Shown here one piece after another: positions 58,022 through 64,000 of a stretch of DNA of 64,000 bases (its first letter is position 1; each line of letters begins with the position of its first letter). The DNA is from an uncultured Chitinophagales bacterium. GTDB taxonomy: Bacteria; Bacteroidota; Bacteroidia; Chitinophagales; JADIYW01. The notes beneath the pieces were generated by a model. The model was not told where the DNA came from, searched no databases, and saw nothing but the letters and a program-made list of their open reading frames with translations. The stretch is taken from the NCBI GenBank assembly GCA_964472755.1, contig CAYYMF010000003.1, positions 4,706 to 68,705 on the forward strand. Reading direction: 5' to 3'. Both the position numbers and the translations under genes were made by a program.

Positions 58022-58834
58022 ATGGCGAAAGAAACAAAAGAACAAATTGCGGAAAAACTTGCAAACGAAGTAATCTCAAACGGGAAATCCAAACGAATGA
58101 AAGTCCGAACTTTGATTGGACATTTTGACTACGAAAAACGAACCGAAGATTGTGCAACAACCATTACCGAACTTTTAGCACAACAAAATATTTTACTCAA
58201 CCCAAGTATTATGAAACTTGGTGAAACTTGGCAGTTAAAATTAGACGACCGAGTTTATCTTATTGAACGGGCAAACGAAAACCTAGATGAAACTAAAATT
58301 GAAAACCTTGAAAGTGATATTTACGATTATCTATCGGACATTTGGTTTGACACAATACAAGAAAAAGTTTATAGGACAGAAAAGGAAGTTGAAAACAAAT
58401 TTATTCTACCTTTACTAAACCGACTTGGATTTTCTGATGACGACAGATACGATGGAATGATAATCAACACTTGCCACGGTTCAAAACAGACAAGTCTTGA
58501 AGTTGATTTTGCCTTATTCAACAGTGGAAACGAAAATTTGGACGGACAGACTCTGCTTGTTGCTGAAGCCAAAAAAGAAGAAAGGCATTACAAAAAAGTG
58601 GAACTTGACAAAGCCCAAAAACAAGTGAAAAGTTACGCTATTTGGTTGAGTTGTCATTTCGGGCTTGTAACAGATAGCAAAACAATCCAAGTAATTGACC
58701 TTTTCCCAAGTATAAACGGAATGAATATAATTTTTGAATGCAATAGAGAAGCACTAAAAGAAAATTTCGTAAACTTGTATAATATTATCAGTAAAACAGC
58801 ATTGACTAAATATTACGAGAAATTAATAACTTAA
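58022..58834 (+). CDS. Stand-alone PD-(D/E)xK nuclease-fold protein of the type I restriction HsdR N-terminal (HSDR_N) type, with an unassigned ~110-aa N-terminal domain
   Basis: 270-aa ORF. The C-terminal half reads TEKEVENKFILPLLNRLGF...SLEVDFALF...LLVAEAKKEE...QVKSYAIWLSCHFGLVTDSKTIQV (E...D...ExK...Q..Y...TDG/S pattern). No methylase, specificity or helicase gene is nearby. Confidence 0.7.
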   Translation: MAKETKEQIAEKLANEVISNGKSKRMKVRTLIGHFDYEKRTEDCATTITELLAQQNILLNPSIMKLGETWQLKLDDRVYLIERANENLDETKIENLESDIYDYLSDIWFDTIQEKVYRTEKEVENKFILPLLNRLGFSDDDRYDGMIINTCHGSKQTSLEVDFALFNSGNENLDGQTLLVAEAKKEERHYKKVELDKAQKQVKSYAIWLSCHFGLVTDSKTIQVIDLFPSINGMNIIFECNREALKENFVNLYNIISKTALTKYYEKLIT

Positions 58835-58894
58835 AAATACAGTAGCTTACGAGCAGTTTTGCAATAATGTCTTGTCCTAAAATAAGTTTACAGA

Positions 58895-59041
58895 TTGGAG
58901 CTAAGTAGTGAAAAATACTTAAAATGGCTTATTGAAAATTATCCTTTTATTTTCCAACGATTTCTGGCACAAAATATTGCCAATGTTATGGGTATTACCA
59001 ATGTATGGCTTTGCAATTTAAAATCAAAATTACGTTTTTAA
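58895..59041 (+). pseudogene. 3'-terminal remnant of a Crp/Fnr-family regulator gene (HTH part only)
   Basis: A 48-codon frame (TTG..TAA) reads ELSSEKYLKWLIENYPFIFQRFLAQNIANVMGITNVWLCNLKSKLRF. It aligns by eye with the C-terminus of the intact Crp gene in this window (EERYLKLVENNADLLNKVPLQYIASYIGVTPVSLSRIRKRI). Upstream frames are closed by stops at 58865 and 58883, and no cNMP-binding part is present. Confidence 0.5.
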
Positions 59042-59073
59042 ATTACTTTAAAATCTTCCTTGTTAATACCTAT

Positions 59074-59081
59074 TAACTTTG
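59074..59081 (+). promoter_or_regulatory. Bacteroidota -7 box TAACTTTG upstream of the SDR gene
   Basis: Exact TAnnTTTG lies 176 nt upstream of ATG 59258. Two short ORFs lie in between. Confidence 0.3.
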
Positions 59082-59257
59082 TATTGAAAAAAATCAGTAC
59101 AATGAAGTCTTATCAGCTAAATAAAGTATGGGTACAACTAAATTTACTTTTACTAAAGTTTTTCAAATTCAAGCCAACAACCTACCTATTGAAGAAACTA
59201 CATTAAAACAACTTTTACAATACACATACGAATTTATTAAAACCATAAATAAATAAC

Positions 59258-60076
59258 ATGAAAAAAACTGCATTAATAACAGGTGCCTCTTCTGACATGG
59301 GAAAGGAAACAGCTAAATTATTAGCAAAAAATGGATATACGGTATATGCATCTGCTCGGCGAGTAGAGAGAATGAAAGATTTAGAAGCATTAGGAATAAA
59401 AGCTTTAAACATTGATGTAACGGACGACAAGTCAATAATACAAGGATTACAGCAAATTTATGAAGAAGAAAACACGATAGATATACTCATTAATAATGCT
59501 GGATTTGGTGCTTATAGTGTTATTGAAGATATGAGCATCTCGGATGCAAAATACCAATTTGAAGTAAACTTATTTGGTGCTGCAAAATTAATACAATTAA
59601 TACTTCCAAAAATGCGTGAAAATAGATTTGGAAAGATTGTAAACATCACATCTGTAGGAGGAAAATTTGCCACACCATACGGCGGTTGGTATCACTCTAG
59701 TAAATTTGCATTGGAAGGGCTCAGTGATGCTCTACGTAACGAAGTTAAACAATTTGGCATTGATGTAATTATTATTGAACCAGGTGGTATAAAATCTGAA
59801 TGGAGTAGTATTGCCATGAAAAATCTTGCAAACAACTCCATACATTCAGCCTATAAAAACACAACGGATACTATGATTAAATTTATGAATAACCCAATGA
59901 TGATTAACAACAACTCAGAACCTAAAGTTATAGCAGAATTGACTCTAAAAGCGATTGAAGCCGTAAACCCTAAAGCAAGATATGTTGGAGGCTTTATGTC
60001 GTCTTCTATTTTATTTTGTAAAAAAATATTATCCGATAAACAATTCGACAACCTGCTTATGTTTCCATTAAAATAA
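59258..60076 (+). CDS. Short-chain dehydrogenase/reductase (classical SDR)
   Basis: 272-aa ORF with cofactor loop TGASSDMGKE, NNAG, and catalytic YHSSK (YxxxK). Confidence 0.9.
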   Translation: MKKTALITGASSDMGKETAKLLAKNGYTVYASARRVERMKDLEALGIKALNIDVTDDKSIIQGLQQIYEEENTIDILINNAGFGAYSVIEDMSISDAKYQFEVNLFGAAKLIQLILPKMRENRFGKIVNITSVGGKFATPYGGWYHSSKFALEGLSDALRNEVKQFGIDVIIIEPGGIKSEWSSIAMKNLANNSIHSAYKNTTDTMIKFMNNPMMINNNSEPKVIAELTLKAIEAVNPKARYVGGFMSSSILFCKKILSDKQFDNLLMFPLK

Positions 60077-60136: not shown

Positions 60137-60174
60137 GTAAAAGCTTAATGAAACGTGTTTCATTAAGCTTTTAC
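60137..60174. terminator. Long perfect hairpin between the SDR gene (+) and trpC (-)
   Basis: GTAAAAGCTTAATGAAAC-GT-GTTTCATTAAGCTTTTAC: an ~17-18-bp perfect palindrome 60 nt after the SDR stop. Confidence 0.6.
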
Positions 60175-60343: not shown

Positions 60344-61126
60344 TTACTTTAATTCTCGAATAAATTCCTTACAAGCTAAAGCGGGCTGCTCTGTTTTCAT
60401 AAAATTTTCTCCAATTAGAAACGCTTCAAAACCATTAGACCTAAAATGTTTTAGTGTATTGATATTAGAGATACCACTTTCTGCAACTTTAATAAAATCT
60501 CTACCTAATTTTTCTGCCATTCGTATGCTCTGTTCTACATCAACTTCAAACGTTTTTAAATTCCTATTGTTAATGCCTACCATATTTACCTTATGGTACA
60601 CATGGTTCAATTCTTCTTCTCCATGTAGTTCTAATAAAACTTCCAAACCTAAATTTTGAGCCAAATCCGTAAACGTTTTTACTTGATGTGGTGTGAGTAT
60701 AGCAGCAATCAATAAAACAATATCTGCTCCCCAATTTTTTGCCTCAATAAATTGGTATTCGTCAACCATAAAATCTTTACGCAACAATGGAATATTCACT
60801 TCATTTCTTGCTTGAATTAAATCATTTTTGCTACCTCCAAAAAAATCAGTATCTGTTAAAATTGAACTTGCTACAACACCAGCACTTTCATAACCTTTTA
60901 CAACTTCAACAACATTTGCTTTATTATTGATTATACCTTTTGAAGGAGATTGTCTTTTAAATTCAGCAATAATTCCTGTACTATTTTCTTGTAGAATATT
61001 CTTAGATACTGAAATCGTATTTCTATTAAAAAAACTTGTTTGTTCTAAATTTCTAATAGAAATATTTGCCTTGGCTTCAGCAATTTCTTCTTTTTTTCTA
61101 CTTACAATTTTATCGAGGATATTCAT
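60344..61126 (-). CDS. trpC: Indole-3-glycerol phosphate synthase
   Basis: 260-aa ORF with IIAEFKRQSPSKG, LRKDF and a TIM-barrel phosphate-binding tail (ESGI, LIGE). Confidence 0.94.
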   Translation of the reverse strand: MNILDKIVSRKKEEIAEAKANISIRNLEQTSFFNRNTISVSKNILQENSTGIIAEFKRQSPSKGIINNKANVVEVVKGYESAGVVASSILTDTDFFGGSKNDLIQARNEVNIPLLRKDFMVDEYQFIEAKNWGADIVLLIAAILTPHQVKTFTDLAQNLGLEVLLELHGEEELNHVYHKVNMVGINNRNLKTFEVDVEQSIRMAEKLGRDFIKVAESGISNINTLKHFRSNGFEAFLIGENFMKTEQPALACKEFIRELK

Positions 61127-61128
61127 AT

Positions 61129-61839
61129 TTATAACTTTGTAATTTTTGGAAGTTCTTGATACTTTTCTATTTTATTATGATGTTTTTGTAATGCAATAAC
61201 AGATGGAAAAGAAGAAGTATCAAAAACATATACTGTTTCTGCAATTTCTAAAGCATTTGGCAATAACTCTAAAGATTTTTTGTATCTACTTTTTATTTTT
61301 TGTTCAGGCACATCGTGTTCTCCTTGTTTTGCTCTTAATTTTACTCTCGCTACATTAACATTCATATCAATTGTATATAAATAATAGAGATAAGTTTTAT
61401 ATCCAAATTGTTTTGCTTTTTTTAGTATATCAACTTTTGACTGATGCGACATTTCCGTTTCAAAACAAAAAGATTGTTTGATTTCAAATAATTTATCTAC
61501 TAAATAAGTTGCCACAAATGATTCGTGATAAGAGTTGATTTCAGCATTTTCTATAGTTAGAATTCCTGATTTAATTTTGCAATTATTCAAAAAAATTGCT
61601 TTATTTTCTATACGTTTGAATAAAGTAGATTGATTGATGTATTTAATAAATTCATCGTGATTGGCTTGAATTCTATATGCAGGAAAATAAAATTGTTTTT
61701 TAGTTCTCAACGTAACTTCAATACTATCTGCACTGATGTATATTTCAGTATGAATGATTTTATCTCGACATAAATCTTTAAATAGTGTAGATTTTCCGGA
61801 GCCATTTGGGCCAGCAAACAGTCGGAATTTCTGTGCCAT
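61129..61839 (-). CDS. Zeta-toxin-like / COG4185-type P-loop kinase-fold protein
   Basis: 236-aa ORF with Walker A GPNGSGKST (residues 10-18), FETEMSH, and RVKLRAKQGEHDVPEQKIKSRY. Its stop lies 2 nt before the trpC ATG. Confidence 0.7.
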   Translation of the reverse strand: MAQKFRLFAGPNGSGKSTLFKDLCRDKIIHTEIYISADSIEVTLRTKKQFYFPAYRIQANHDEFIKYINQSTLFKRIENKAIFLNNCKIKSGILTIENAEINSYHESFVATYLVDKLFEIKQSFCFETEMSHQSKVDILKKAKQFGYKTYLYYLYTIDMNVNVARVKLRAKQGEHDVPEQKIKSRYKKSLELLPNALEIAETVYVFDTSSFPSVIALQKHHNKIEKYQELPKITKL

Positions 61840-61991
61840 TATTTACTTTTTTTATATGGATAAATTTCTTTTATTTTTCCATCTTCAATTACAATTATCG
61901 GTTGATTAAACTTTTTAGCACGCTTAACAACTGTTTTTGCAACGGATTCCAAAACTTTTTCCATTTTTGCTTTTTCAATACTTGCTGTCAT
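61839..61991 (-). CDS. Unlisted 50-aa ORF, candidate antitoxin/partner of the zeta-like protein
   Basis: Manual translation gives MTASIEKAKMEKVLESVAKTVVKRAKKFNQPIIVIEDGKIKEIYPYKKSK. Its TAA overlaps the downstream ATG (TAATG), and it starts 34 nt after the trpD stop. It is below the length cut-off of the track. Confidence 0.5.
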   Translation of the reverse strand: MTASIEKAKMEKVLESVAKTVVKRAKKFNQPIIVIEDGKIKEIYPYKKSK

Positions 61992-62025
61992 ACTTTAAAG
62001 TTAATATTTTATATTGAAATAAGTT

Positions 62026-63012
62026 TTAATTAATTATCAATTTTTCTAAACAAGAAAGTGCTTTTAAACCCAACAAACTTTCTTTAGCTAATGCCACACT
62101 TTCTTCTAAATTTTTATCTGTATAAAGTGAAATACCTAATGCAGCATTGGCAATAACAACATTATTTTGAGCTTCTGTGCCTTTGCCATTTAAGACATTA
62201 AGAAAAATAGTTTTATTACTTTCTATCGAATCTCCACCATAAATTTCAGCTGCTTGTATTTTTTCTGCTCCAAAATCTTTAGGCAAGTAGTAAACATCTT
62301 TATCTTTAGTCGATACGTGTGTTTCTGCTGTTAAAGAAATTTCATCATATCCATCAGTTGCATGAACAACTGCAAAATTGCTTTTAAGTTGCAATAAAAC
62401 ATTTTTATACAAGTTTCCTATAACATCGCTATAAACACCAATCATTTGTATCGTAGGCTCACAAGGATTAGAAAGTGGTCCTAATAAATTAAAAATCGTT
62501 TTAACACCCATTTCTTTTCTCAAAGCTCCGATATTTTTCATCGCAGGATGAAATAATGGTGCGTGTAAAAAGGTAATATTTGCATCGTTTAATTGTTGAT
62601 TCAACACGGTTTCATCGCTAGTAAAAACTACCCCAACTGCTTCTAGAATGTTCGAAGATCCAGATACTGAAGAAGCACTATAATTTCCATGTTTAGCAAC
62701 TTTTACACCAGCACCAGCACATACCAAACAAGCTAATGTAGAAATATTAAAAGTATCTTTTCCATCACCACCAGTTCCAACAATATCAATTACCTTCGTC
62801 TGATGTATGTTGATTTGAAGTGCTTGTTTTAACATCGTATCTCGATATCCAAGCATTTCTTCGGTTGATGGCAATCGCATATTGAGAGCAGACAATAATG
62901 CGGCAGTCTGAATATCGCTGTATTTTTTATTGGTAATATCTTCTACAATTTGACTGGCTTCTGCTCTAGTTAAATAATGTCCAAAATATAATCTATGTAA
63001 TAAATCTTTCAT
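62026..63012 (-). CDS. trpD: Anthranilate phosphoribosyltransferase
   Basis: The track ORF extends to 63075 and overlaps the upstream gene. ATG 63012 (MKDLLHRLYFGHYLTRAEA) is preferred. It has GTGGDG and KHGN motifs. Confidence 0.93.
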   Translation of the reverse strand: MKDLLHRLYFGHYLTRAEASQIVEDITNKKYSDIQTAALLSALNMRLPSTEEMLGYRDTMLKQALQINIHQTKVIDIVGTGGDGKDTFNISTLACLVCAGAGVKVAKHGNYSASSVSGSSNILEAVGVVFTSDETVLNQQLNDANITFLHAPLFHPAMKNIGALRKEMGVKTIFNLLGPLSNPCEPTIQMIGVYSDVIGNLYKNVLLQLKSNFAVVHATDGYDEISLTAETHVSTKDKDVYYLPKDFGAEKIQAAEIYGGDSIESNKTIFLNVLNGKGTEAQNNVVIANAALGISLYTDKNLEESVALAKESLLGLKALSCLEKLIIN

Positions 63013-63016
63013 TGTT

Positions 63017-64000
63017 TTAGGTTTGTAATACGCCCACATTAAATTTTTCAACTGGTGCATTGTTGGCTGCTTCAATGCCCATAGAAATCCATTTTCTAGT
63101 TTCTAGTGGGTCAATTACTGCATCTACCCAAATTCTTGATGCCGCATAATAAGCAGTAGTTGTCGCTTCGTATCTATCTTTTATTTCTTTTAATATTTTA
63201 GCCTTTTCATCTTCAGAAATTTCTTTGCCTTTCGCTTTGATAGAAGCTTCCTGAATTTGTAAGATTACTTTAGATGCTTGATCGCCACCCATTACCGCAA
63301 TTTTAGCTGATGGCCAAGCTACTATCAAACGTGGGTCATACGCTTTTCCGCACATTGCATAATTTCCTGCTCCATAACTATTTCCAGTAACGATAGTAAA
63401 TTTAGGCACTACTGAATTGGAAACAGCATTGACTAATTTTGCACCATCTTTAATAATTCCACCATGTTCACTACGTGAACCAACCATAAAGCCAGTAACA
63501 TCTTGAAGGAATACCAAAGGAATTTTCTTTTGATTGCACAACATAATAAATCGAGCTGCCTTATCTGCACTATCTGAATAAATTACACCGCCGATTTGCA
63601 CCTCTCCTTTTGCACTCTTTACAACATTTCTTTGGTTAGCAACAATACCCACACTCCAACCATCAATTCTAGCATAAGCACAAGTAATTGTTTGTCCATA
63701 TTCTTCTTTATATTCCGTAAATTCAGAATTATCGACCATACGTTTAATAACTTCTCTTACATCATAAGGCTTTCCAGTTGCTGAGGTATAAATACCATAA
63801 ATTTCTTTTTCATTTGCTTTTGGCTTTTTTGATTTTACTCTATCAAAACCAGCAGTTTCAAATTTTCCGTATTTGTCAATTAATTTTTTGATAGTATCTA
63901 AACACTCTTTATCGTCTTTCATTTTATAATCACAAACTCCAGAAATTGCAGTTTGTGTAAATGCACCACCTAAAACTTCTTGTTCCACAGTTTCGCCTAT
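63017..64000 (-). CDS. Acyl-CoA carboxylase carboxyltransferase (beta) subunit, C-terminal part; N-terminus lies beyond the window end
   Basis: The frame is open to position 64000 (...GETVEQEVLGGA...). Carboxyltransferase-domain features are FLQDVTGFMVG, GAGNYAMCG and AASRIWVDAVIDP. Confidence 0.88.
   Translation of the reverse strand: MGETVEQEVLGGAFTQTAISGVCDYKMKDDKECLDTIKKLIDKYGKFETAGFDRVKSKKPKANEKEIYGIYTSATGKPYDVREVIKRMVDNSEFTEYKEEYGQTITCAYARIDGWSVGIVANQRNVVKSAKGEVQIGGVIYSDSADKAARFIMLCNQKKIPLVFLQDVTGFMVGSRSEHGGIIKDGAKLVNAVSNSVVPKFTIVTGNSYGAGNYAMCGKAYDPRLIVAWPSAKIAVMGGDQASKVILQIQEASIKAKGKEISEDEKAKILKEIKDRYEATTTAYYAASRIWVDAVIDPLETRKWISMGIEAANNAPVEKFNVGVLQT

Follow-up and report, generated by a model that had tools for sequence, protein, structure and literature searches.

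A putative toxin-antitoxin pair with a zeta-like kinase, inserted between trpD and trpC in one Chitinophagales clade

This study concerns two small genes that lie between trpD and trpC in an uncultured Chitinophagales bacterium (assembly GCA_964472755.1, contig CAYYMF010000003.1, positions 4,706 to 68,705 of the forward strand). The whole stretch of 64,000 nucleotides (nt) that was analysed is called the window, and coordinates refer to it unless another locus is named. The two genes encode a 50-aa partner protein and a 236-aa P-loop kinase resembling the zeta toxins, and are probably a toxin-antitoxin (TA) pair of an unstudied subtype. On the minus strand, from 63012 to 60344, the order is trpD, a 34-nt spacer, the 50-codon open reading frame (ORF), the 236-codon ORF, a 2-nt gap and trpC.

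62026..63012, minus strand: trpD, anthranilate phosphoribosyltransferase (TIGR01245, 312.6 bits against a cut-off of 199; Pfam Glycos_transf_3 and Glycos_trans_3N)
61992..62025, minus strand: spacer of 34 nt from trpD to the partner gene, upstream of the small ORF
61839..61991, minus strand: 50-codon partner ORF, putative antitoxin; its TAA shares one A with the kinase ATG (TAATG)
61129..61839, minus strand: 236-codon ORF for a zeta-toxin-like P-loop kinase of the long-form subfamily, putative toxin; its stop lies 2 nt before the trpC ATG
60344..61126, minus strand: trpC, indole-3-glycerol-phosphate synthase (NF001377, 284.5 bits against a cut-off of 260; Pfam IGPS, E=1e-73)

An earlier reading of this DNA, made from the sequence alone, had described the coordinates of trpD, trpC and the 50-codon ORF, the TAATG overlap and the 2-nt gap to trpC, and all of these are as described. 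That sequence-only reading had placed the locus among the Flavobacteriia. The organism is instead represented by a Chitinophagales metagenome-assembled genome (MAG), and "Chitinophagales bacterium" MAGs are found among the 90% cluster mates.

Conservation shows that the 50-codon ORF is a genuine gene. Independent gene callers predict exactly this 50-aa protein on more than 20 public contigs, and it is 62-78% identical in three diverged lineages. Across lineages the ratio of non-synonymous to synonymous substitution rates (dN/dS) is 0.09-0.25. A profile of partner relatives collects 111 proteins with E-values down to 1e-20, all of them annotated as hypothetical and none with a Pfam domain. An iterated hidden Markov model (HMM) detected partner homologues immediately before the kinase gene in at least 66 of 81 loci. 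The small ORF is short, lacks a family assignment and yields a model of moderate confidence, as would be expected of a chance ORF in AT-rich spacer DNA with the kinase as the sole gene. The purifying selection, the number of homologues, their position upstream of the kinase and the independent gene calls speak against such an accident, to which we assign a negligible probability. Conservation of the small ORF, on which the sequence-only reading had made its proposal depend, is thus observed both in substitution rates and in homologous loci.

The partner is a basic protein with a predicted helix over residues 3-27 and a predicted β-hairpin formed by residues 32-36 and 39-44 (AlphaFold2, AF2; predicted local distance difference test, pLDDT, 74). 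Residues P31 and G38 are near-invariant in the family alignment. No family match was obtained in Pfam, NCBIfam or PADLOC, and matches to a TnpB-related profile (19.6 bits against a cut-off of 32) and to aRib (below threshold) were rejected as noise. No antitoxin family had been recognised in this protein from its sequence, and the searches, including one against the PDB, bear this out. The best reading is that the antitoxin candidate belongs to a new family.

Profile matches and a predicted structure support the assignment of the 236-aa protein to the zeta-toxin or "predicted ABC-type ATPase" superfamily of P-loop kinases. The protein passes the Pfam Zeta_toxin model (PF06414) narrowly, with E=5e-6 and 26.5 bits against a gathering threshold of 22.3, and a plasmid homologue scores 44 bits. 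We retrieved 523 kinase homologues at E<=1e-3. Most of the 120 that were listed carry a precomputed PF06414 annotation, and most are named "zeta toxin family protein" or "predicted ABC-type ATPase"; the former is also the PGAP/NCBI name for the protein's 90% cluster mates. An exhaustive profile search returned 588 clusters (50% identity) at E<=1e-30 and 8603 at E<=1e-3. A match on an Enterococcus plasmid (H63) was considered as a canonical zeta and rejected as not being one, and the literature search on COG4185 found nothing relevant. The family as a whole is solidly zeta-like. The Zeta_toxin/COG4185-type assignment made earlier is upheld by the Pfam score, the names of the homologues and the closest folds, and the motifs on which it relied (GPNGSGKST, FETEMSH and RV..R...GEHDVP...I..RY) are all present.

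The AF2 model of the kinase, built from a 28-sequence alignment, has a pLDDT of 92.7. In a Foldseek search its matches at ranks 1-8 were 3q8x/1gvn (zeta), 4z8t/4z8q (AvrRxo1) and 2p5t (PezT), with E=3e-6 to 3e-5 and query TM-scores of 0.46-0.60, the highest (0.60) being that of AvrRxo1 4z8t. The model contains an insert subdomain of about 50 residues (approximately 48-100), which is conserved, confidently modelled and composed of a strand, three short helices and a hairpin. This insert is absent from short-form relatives and marks a long-form subfamily. From sequence, some 70 residues had seemed to carry no feature that could be placed. These residues turn out to be the conserved insert subdomain, so that the description no longer applies, although it remains true that the insert alone matches nothing. 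Deleting residues 48-100 brought no improvement in the Zeta_toxin score (26.8 bits, compared with 26.5 for the intact protein).

The key residues of the kinase are G10-K16 of the Walker A motif, D38, E127-T128-x-x-S131-H132, R165/R169, G173-x-H175 and R185. The Walker A motif, D38, E127, T128, R165, R169, G173, H175 and R185 show no variation among the 28 long-form sequences compared, nor in the short-form plasmid relatives. The Walker A motif reads GPNGSGKS with K16, and D38 follows K16 by 22 residues, compared with 21 between K46 and D67 in zeta. Motif order, spacing and secondary structure, rather than superposition, suggest that K16 is equivalent to K46, D38 to D67 (the catalytic base) and E127 to E116 of zeta. 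In zeta the GTXR motif (Gly117-Thr121) binds UDP-N-acetylglucosamine (UDP-GlcNAc; PMC6362051), and the catalytic aspartate is Asp67, or Asp66 in PezT. The GTXR motif is absent from the window kinase: the segment after strand 3 is F-E127-T128-E-M-S131-H132 (consensus FETVMSH), with neither Gly nor Arg in the corresponding stretch. Because this motif is missing, UDP-GlcNAc is an unlikely substrate. The zeta/PezT type of UDP-GlcNAc activity implied by the sequence-only reading is thus not favoured, the motif being replaced by ET(V/E)MSH.

By analogy, the closest characterised counterpart of the pair is PezT-Mtb/PezA-Mtb (Rv0366c-Rv0367c) of Mycobacterium tuberculosis, in which the kinase is toxic, the upstream partner neutralises it, GTXR is absent and the catalytic Asp lies about 21 residues after the Walker Lys (PMC6362051). 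PezT-Mtb resembles the window kinase in being compact, in having a P-loop and a catalytic Asp, in lacking GTXR and in having its partner gene directly upstream. Its R116 and H122 would correspond to R169 and H175 of the window kinase, an Arg followed by a His six residues on, a correspondence drawn from the residue numbers given in the paper. The two systems differ in that Rv0366c has 197 residues and lacks the insert of about 50 residues, whereas the window kinase has 236 residues and contains it; the antitoxin of PezT-Mtb is a 129-aa ribbon-helix-helix (RHH)/ParD-like protein, whereas the window partner is a 50-aa helix-hairpin protein. PezT-Mtb and ng_zeta1 are both distant relatives that are toxic and neutralised by the product of the upstream gene (PMC6362051, PMC5923241).

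The epsilon/zeta systems of pSM19035 and pRE25 and PezAT of Streptococcus pneumoniae belong to the same Pfam family, and zeta and PezT are among the best structural matches of the window kinase. They share with it the order of Walker A, catalytic Asp after strand 2 and Glu after strand 3, and, like the window pair, they have a small antitoxin gene immediately upstream. Identity in the structural alignment is however 13-15%, and zeta has E116-G-T-G-R-T where the window kinase has E127-T-x-M-S-H. The epsilon and PezA antitoxins are three-helix bundles, PezA with an additional helix-turn-helix (HTH), in contrast to the helix and hairpin predicted for the window partner, which has no Pfam or NCBIfam match and is neither of the Epsilon (PF08998) nor of the PezA type. 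Unlike the epsilon/zeta systems, the window pair has no omega-type regulator.

AvrRxo1 of Xanthomonas is a zeta-like kinase that phosphorylates NAD and is bound and inhibited by its partner Arc1 (PMC5491322, PMC5087710). Like the window kinase it combines a zeta-like core with extra elements, which in AvrRxo1 bind the substrate, and it gives the highest query-normalised TM-score. It is however a secreted type III effector of about 420 residues with 10-11% identity to the window kinase, and Arc1 is unrelated to the 50-aa partner. The predicted helix and hairpin, for which no fold match was found in the PDB, suggest that the window partner is unlike Epsilon, PezA, ng_epsilon1, Rv0367c and Arc1 alike. 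Further relatives are the short-form "zeta toxin family protein" pairs on proteobacterial plasmids such as E. coli pEC187_3 and Agrobacterium pMP90, which have the same invariant catalytic residues and a small upstream "hypothetical protein" gene overlapping or abutting the kinase gene. In their kinases the NSYH helix follows the Asp motif without the insert, which accounts for about 50-60 residues, and identity is 24-32%.

The pair behaves as a unit. In the loci with a detected partner homologue the gap to the kinase gene ranges from -11 to +29 nt, and the two genes overlap in 16 of those 66 loci. Of the other loci, several are truncated or have a small ORF that has diverged further. A small partner gene coupled to the kinase, as proposed from the window sequence, is therefore a conserved and tightly coupled arrangement in the family. 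Partner-kinase fusions are rare: in P0353 (326 aa) and P0358 (319 aa) a long-form kinase is preceded, within one chain, by a partner-like N-terminus (…VRQAHQKALDLGPVLEAVNGQLIEVSPDGS…). Both may be natural fusions comparable to EzeT, or else frameshift or gene-calling artefacts, and they hint weakly at an interaction between partner and kinase.

Hosts of the pair include Bacteroidota, Verrucomicrobiota, Acinetobacter and Leptospira, with a patchy distribution across phyla, and beyond genus-level synteny no constant flanking gene was found. Relatives turn up in 340 plasmid records, of which 155 are conjugative. On the Azotobacter plasmid pAcX50d the partner gene lies 2 nt upstream of the kinase gene, and in P. 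aeruginosa megaplasmids the partner is present but unannotated. The conjugative E. coli plasmid pEC187_3 (L186 1250..2091) carries a short-form kinase with an 83-aa upstream partner and a 1-nt overlap, between kleE and trfB/parA/parB in the stable-inheritance region; this short-form pair appears to be uncharacterised. The generic layout of type II TA systems, namely small, adjacent, co-oriented genes that are tightly spaced or overlapping and remain paired across varied contexts including plasmids, is thus found here.

Mobility and variable context would also suit an abortive-infection or phage-defence module, in which a TA-like kinase is released on infection rather than serving addiction or persistence. 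The short-form pair on Agrobacterium pMP90 stands beside a HEPN gene, the S subunit gene of a type I restriction-modification system is next to the pair in L043, and a weak match to AbiLi (E=1e-4, 19.5 bits) was obtained with PADLOC. PADLOC gave no significant defence-system match for the pair, however, the phage matches were four in number and weak, and the neighbours in the window are trpD, trpC, leuC and leuD, with no defence island around them. We consider a defence module improbable.

Comparison of the trpD-trpC junction in relatives identifies the pair as an insertion. The arrangement trpD-partner-kinase-trpC was found in four lineages, with kinase identities of 96-100%, 79%, 72% and 67%, and the junction from kinase to trpC measures 2-3 nt in all four. 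The outer flanks are of two kinds, one group having a carboxyltransferase gene upstream and leuCD downstream, the other being framed by Bat/VWA/TPR genes on the upstream side and feoAB on the downstream side. Elsewhere in the Bacteroidota, trpD and trpC are immediate neighbours in about 60 metagenome loci, typically in trpE-G-D-C(-F-B) operons; of the outgroups, L099 has trpE-G-D-C and L103 trpE-G-D-C-F-B. The association with trp genes is confined to one Chitinophagales clade (kinase identity of at least 67%) and is not conserved across taxa. The pair was thus inserted into an ancestral trpD-trpC junction in the ancestor of this clade. A literature search for toxin-antitoxin modules inside trp operons found nothing relevant.

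One relative within the clade lacks the pair. In L098, trpD and trpC are 83% and 85% identical to those of the window and are separated by a 79-nt spacer, and by trpD/trpC dN this locus is closer to the window than is the pair-bearing L003 lineage. The simplest history is a single insertion, vertical descent over a synonymous divergence (dS) of more than 1, and a single later loss, in the L098 lineage. A deletion scar was sought in the 79-nt spacer and rejected; the best local match falls at the junction of kinase stop and trpC start, but 36% of shuffles equal it.

Both genes of the pair are under purifying selection (dN/dS of the kinase gene 0.13-0.18), and this selection is somewhat weaker than that on the trp genes (0.04-0.18). 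The GC content at third codon positions (GC3) is 0.14-0.16 for the pair and 0.18 for the trp genes. As GC3 is about the same, the lower overall GC of the pair is attributed to amino-acid composition, and it was rejected as a sign of recent transfer. A GC3 that matches the host argues for a long residence.

Two further loci add detail to the junction. L092 (6980..9645, compared with window 60344..63012) is a mosaic: its small ORF is identical to that of the window (dS 0) and its kinase gene is close (dS 0.06), but its trpC differs strongly from the window version (dS 0.75) and hardly at all from the L089 one (dS 0.045). The pattern suggests that homologous recombination took place, with the breakpoint close to where the kinase gene ends. 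In L089 (3665..3898) the distance from trpD to the partner gene is longer by about 190 nt. Roughly the final 44 nt of this stretch repeat the sequence of the trpD end and spacer of the window (AATTAATTAAAAC...TAACTTTAAA), which points to an insertion at the very 3' end of trpD.

The position of the pair could be adaptive if its function were tied to tryptophan or aromatic metabolism, for instance if the kinase phosphorylated an intermediate or acted as a growth brake on Trp starvation. The position has been kept through dS>1 with a conserved 2-3 nt junction to trpC, and no terminator separates the pair from the trp genes. In Mucilaginibacter (L008 and L011, 1..4000) the pair lies directly downstream of aroA (5-enolpyruvylshikimate-3-phosphate, EPSP, synthase), aroC (chorismate synthase) and a major facilitator superfamily (MFS) transporter gene, a second aromatic amino-acid neighbourhood that reflects genus-level synteny only. 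A metabolic link is nevertheless contradicted by the distribution of the pair: trpD or trpC lies nearby in none of 80 genome loci, the nearest kinase relative outside the clade (59% identity) has an unrelated location, a relative nested within the clade has lost the pair, and the trp loci of other Bacteroidota mentioned above do without it. There is also no other trp gene in the window. We hold this explanation to be very improbable, and nothing found ties the biochemical function of the pair to tryptophan synthesis. The best reading is that the module became fixed in the trpD-trpC junction by chance.

Two further features of the window bear on expression.

63017..63988, minus strand: 3' part of an acyl-CoA carboxyltransferase gene (Pfam Carboxyl_trans, E=6e-90); the gene runs past the window end
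60137..60174, minus strand: hairpin site 170 nt past the end of trpC (perfect inverted repeat of 17 bp, loop of 4 nt, then a T-rich tail)

Only 4 nt separate the end of the carboxyltransferase gene from the start of trpD, and this gene is probably the first of a transcription unit with trpD. It is complete in L092 (542 aa), with a TAAATTTG box just upstream; canonical -7 boxes of the Bacteroidota type (TAnnTTTG) were seen ahead of this gene in L092 and ahead of trpD in L003. No such box was found in the 34-nt spacer before the partner gene, which holds only TAACTTTA, ending 6 nt before the ATG. A sigma-70 promoter scan before the partner gene gave no excess over shuffles, this promoter type being unsuited to Bacteroidota. 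No terminator-like hairpin lies between trpD and trpC. The hairpin at 60137..60174, the sole terminator-like site on this strand downstream of trpD, stands opposite the end of a convergent dehydrogenase gene; it is probably a bidirectional terminator and likely marks the end of the transcription unit in the window strain. With no terminator-like hairpin from trpD to trpC and no canonical -7 box before the partner gene, co-transcription of the pair with trpD and trpC is likely from the sequence.

Control by tryptophan is in comparison a matter of speculation, since the carboxyltransferase gene lies 4 nt upstream of trpD, no homologue of trpE, trpG, trpF, trpB or trpA is present anywhere in the 64-kb window, and an Rfam search of the whole window returned no leader or riboswitch. 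The sequence-only reading had proposed that all four genes are co-transcribed under trp control and that the pair was captured in an amino-acid biosynthesis operon. The lack of a terminator between trpD and trpC and the insertion between these genes (four lineages with the pair, about 60 loci without) agree with it. The regulatory part remains speculative, and what it called an operon is only a trpD-trpC remnant, an isolated pair of genes in this lineage.

Two neighbouring features vary between strains. Two plus-strand genes at 58022..60076, encoding a 270-aa protein with weak HSDR_N similarity and a 272-aa short-chain dehydrogenase, separate trpC from leuC only in the window strain, L093, L096 and L097. 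In L092, L089 and L095 leuC comes about 126 nt after trpC, which makes the two genes a strain-level insertion. On one metagenome contig (L001, 2403..3617) the carboxyltransferase gene upstream of trpD is split into five short ORFs, either as a pseudogene or through an assembly error.

Taken together, these observations make it reasonably probable that the pair is an autonomous, horizontally mobile two-gene module, most likely a type II TA pair. We infer, and only infer, that the kinase is toxic and that the partner neutralises it. In the proposed mechanism, the kinase would use ATP (Walker A K16 and Glu127), with Asp38 as catalytic base, to phosphorylate an essential small-molecule metabolite. 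Since GTXR is replaced by ET(V/E)MSH and a conserved stretch of about 50 residues is inserted beside the active site, this metabolite would probably not be UDP-GlcNAc. The small partner would bind the kinase and block its activity. As the comparisons above show, the module landed exactly in the trpD-trpC junction in the clade ancestor, has been inherited vertically under purifying selection, and was lost again in at least one sub-lineage. In the window strain it is probably read through from the carboxyltransferase-trpD promoter, the trpC start following 2 nt after the kinase stop.

Several results weigh against a type II TA pair with a zeta-like toxin. The Zeta_toxin match is marginal and covers residues 107-190 only (profile positions 81-167), that is, the C-terminal half of the protein. 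When PDB sequences were searched with either the single protein or the 28-sequence profile, nothing beyond the P-loop/Walker A aligned, and hhalign of the kinase profile (A1) against canonical zeta (pRE25) aligned the P-loop alone. The Foldseek TM-scores are modest (0.49-0.60), with generic nucleoside monophosphate (NMP) and polynucleotide kinases close behind. For the partner model, Foldseek found no fold match in the PDB and hence no recognisable DNA-binding or antitoxin fold, and PADLOC, as noted above, gave no significant defence-system match. Both proteins are strongly basic in this clade (partner +6.5, kinase +11), which is not the usual charge complementarity. Plasmid copies from Pseudomonas and Azotobacter combine an acidic kinase (-6) with a basic partner, and the E. 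coli short form shows the opposite signs; charge complementarity was dropped as evidence, there being no consistent pattern across the family. Finally, three lineages share a near-box, TAnnTTTA, placed 6 nt ahead of the partner ATG, and with this conserved element the pair may have an internal promoter.

Some of these results would fit a non-toxic kinase, acting conditionally on a small molecule or a polynucleotide in the manner of, for example, chloramphenicol phosphotransferase, with the partner as a regulatory or adaptor subunit and the pair spreading by its usefulness. The fold is common to many non-toxic P-loop kinases, and the lowest root-mean-square deviation in the kinase Foldseek search (about 4 Å) was that of a polynucleotide kinase. 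The missing UDP-GlcNAc-binding motif and a partner without a known antitoxin fold point the same way, as do the long retention in the chromosome under purifying selection and the loss of the pair in one lineage, where trpD and trpC show no visible damage. A useful enzyme does not, on the other hand, readily explain why most loci have a small gene upstream that adjoins or runs into the kinase gene, which is the type II TA signature, the location of relatives among plasmid stability genes, or the patchy distribution over phyla with no fixed neighbours. Moreover, the characterised superfamily members with an upstream partner are toxins (PMC6362051, PMC5923241, PMC10532202). A non-toxic kinase is accordingly a doubtful explanation, if one to be taken seriously.

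A broader form of the TA interpretation, which we think unlikely to hold in full, is that the long-form subfamily, which comprises at least 588 clusters at the 50% identity level from several phyla and from plasmids, is a new branch of zeta-like toxins that always occurs with a helix-hairpin partner. Through its insert the kinase would act on a metabolite that is neither a UDP-sugar nor NAD, the partner would have a new antitoxin fold, and the module would be entrenched in the Chitinophagales clade. Zeta-family kinases are known as cell-wall-precursor or NAD kinases, and most of the family is uncharacterised. A 2023 survey of zeta proteins required E<1e-10 and 80% profile coverage (PMC10532202), and would for these reasons have missed the 236-aa protein.

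The finding has no bearing on a long-standing open question, and the locus is a neat curiosity, not a system of a new kind. It does define a large long-form subfamily with a conserved extra subdomain, no UDP-GlcNAc motif and a partner family absent from Pfam and NCBIfam. The long-form pair is thus a concrete candidate for a new substrate and for a new way of neutralising a toxin. On the broader interpretation, judged unlikely above, transcription, and possibly translation, of trpC would pass through a toxin gene, and the dosage of toxin and antitoxin would be tied to trp expression. The trpD-trpC site offers a clean natural case of a selfish-type cassette fixed in a biosynthetic gene pair. This cassette has been inherited through species-level divergence and later lost once, which makes the clade useful for studying how such modules become entrenched.

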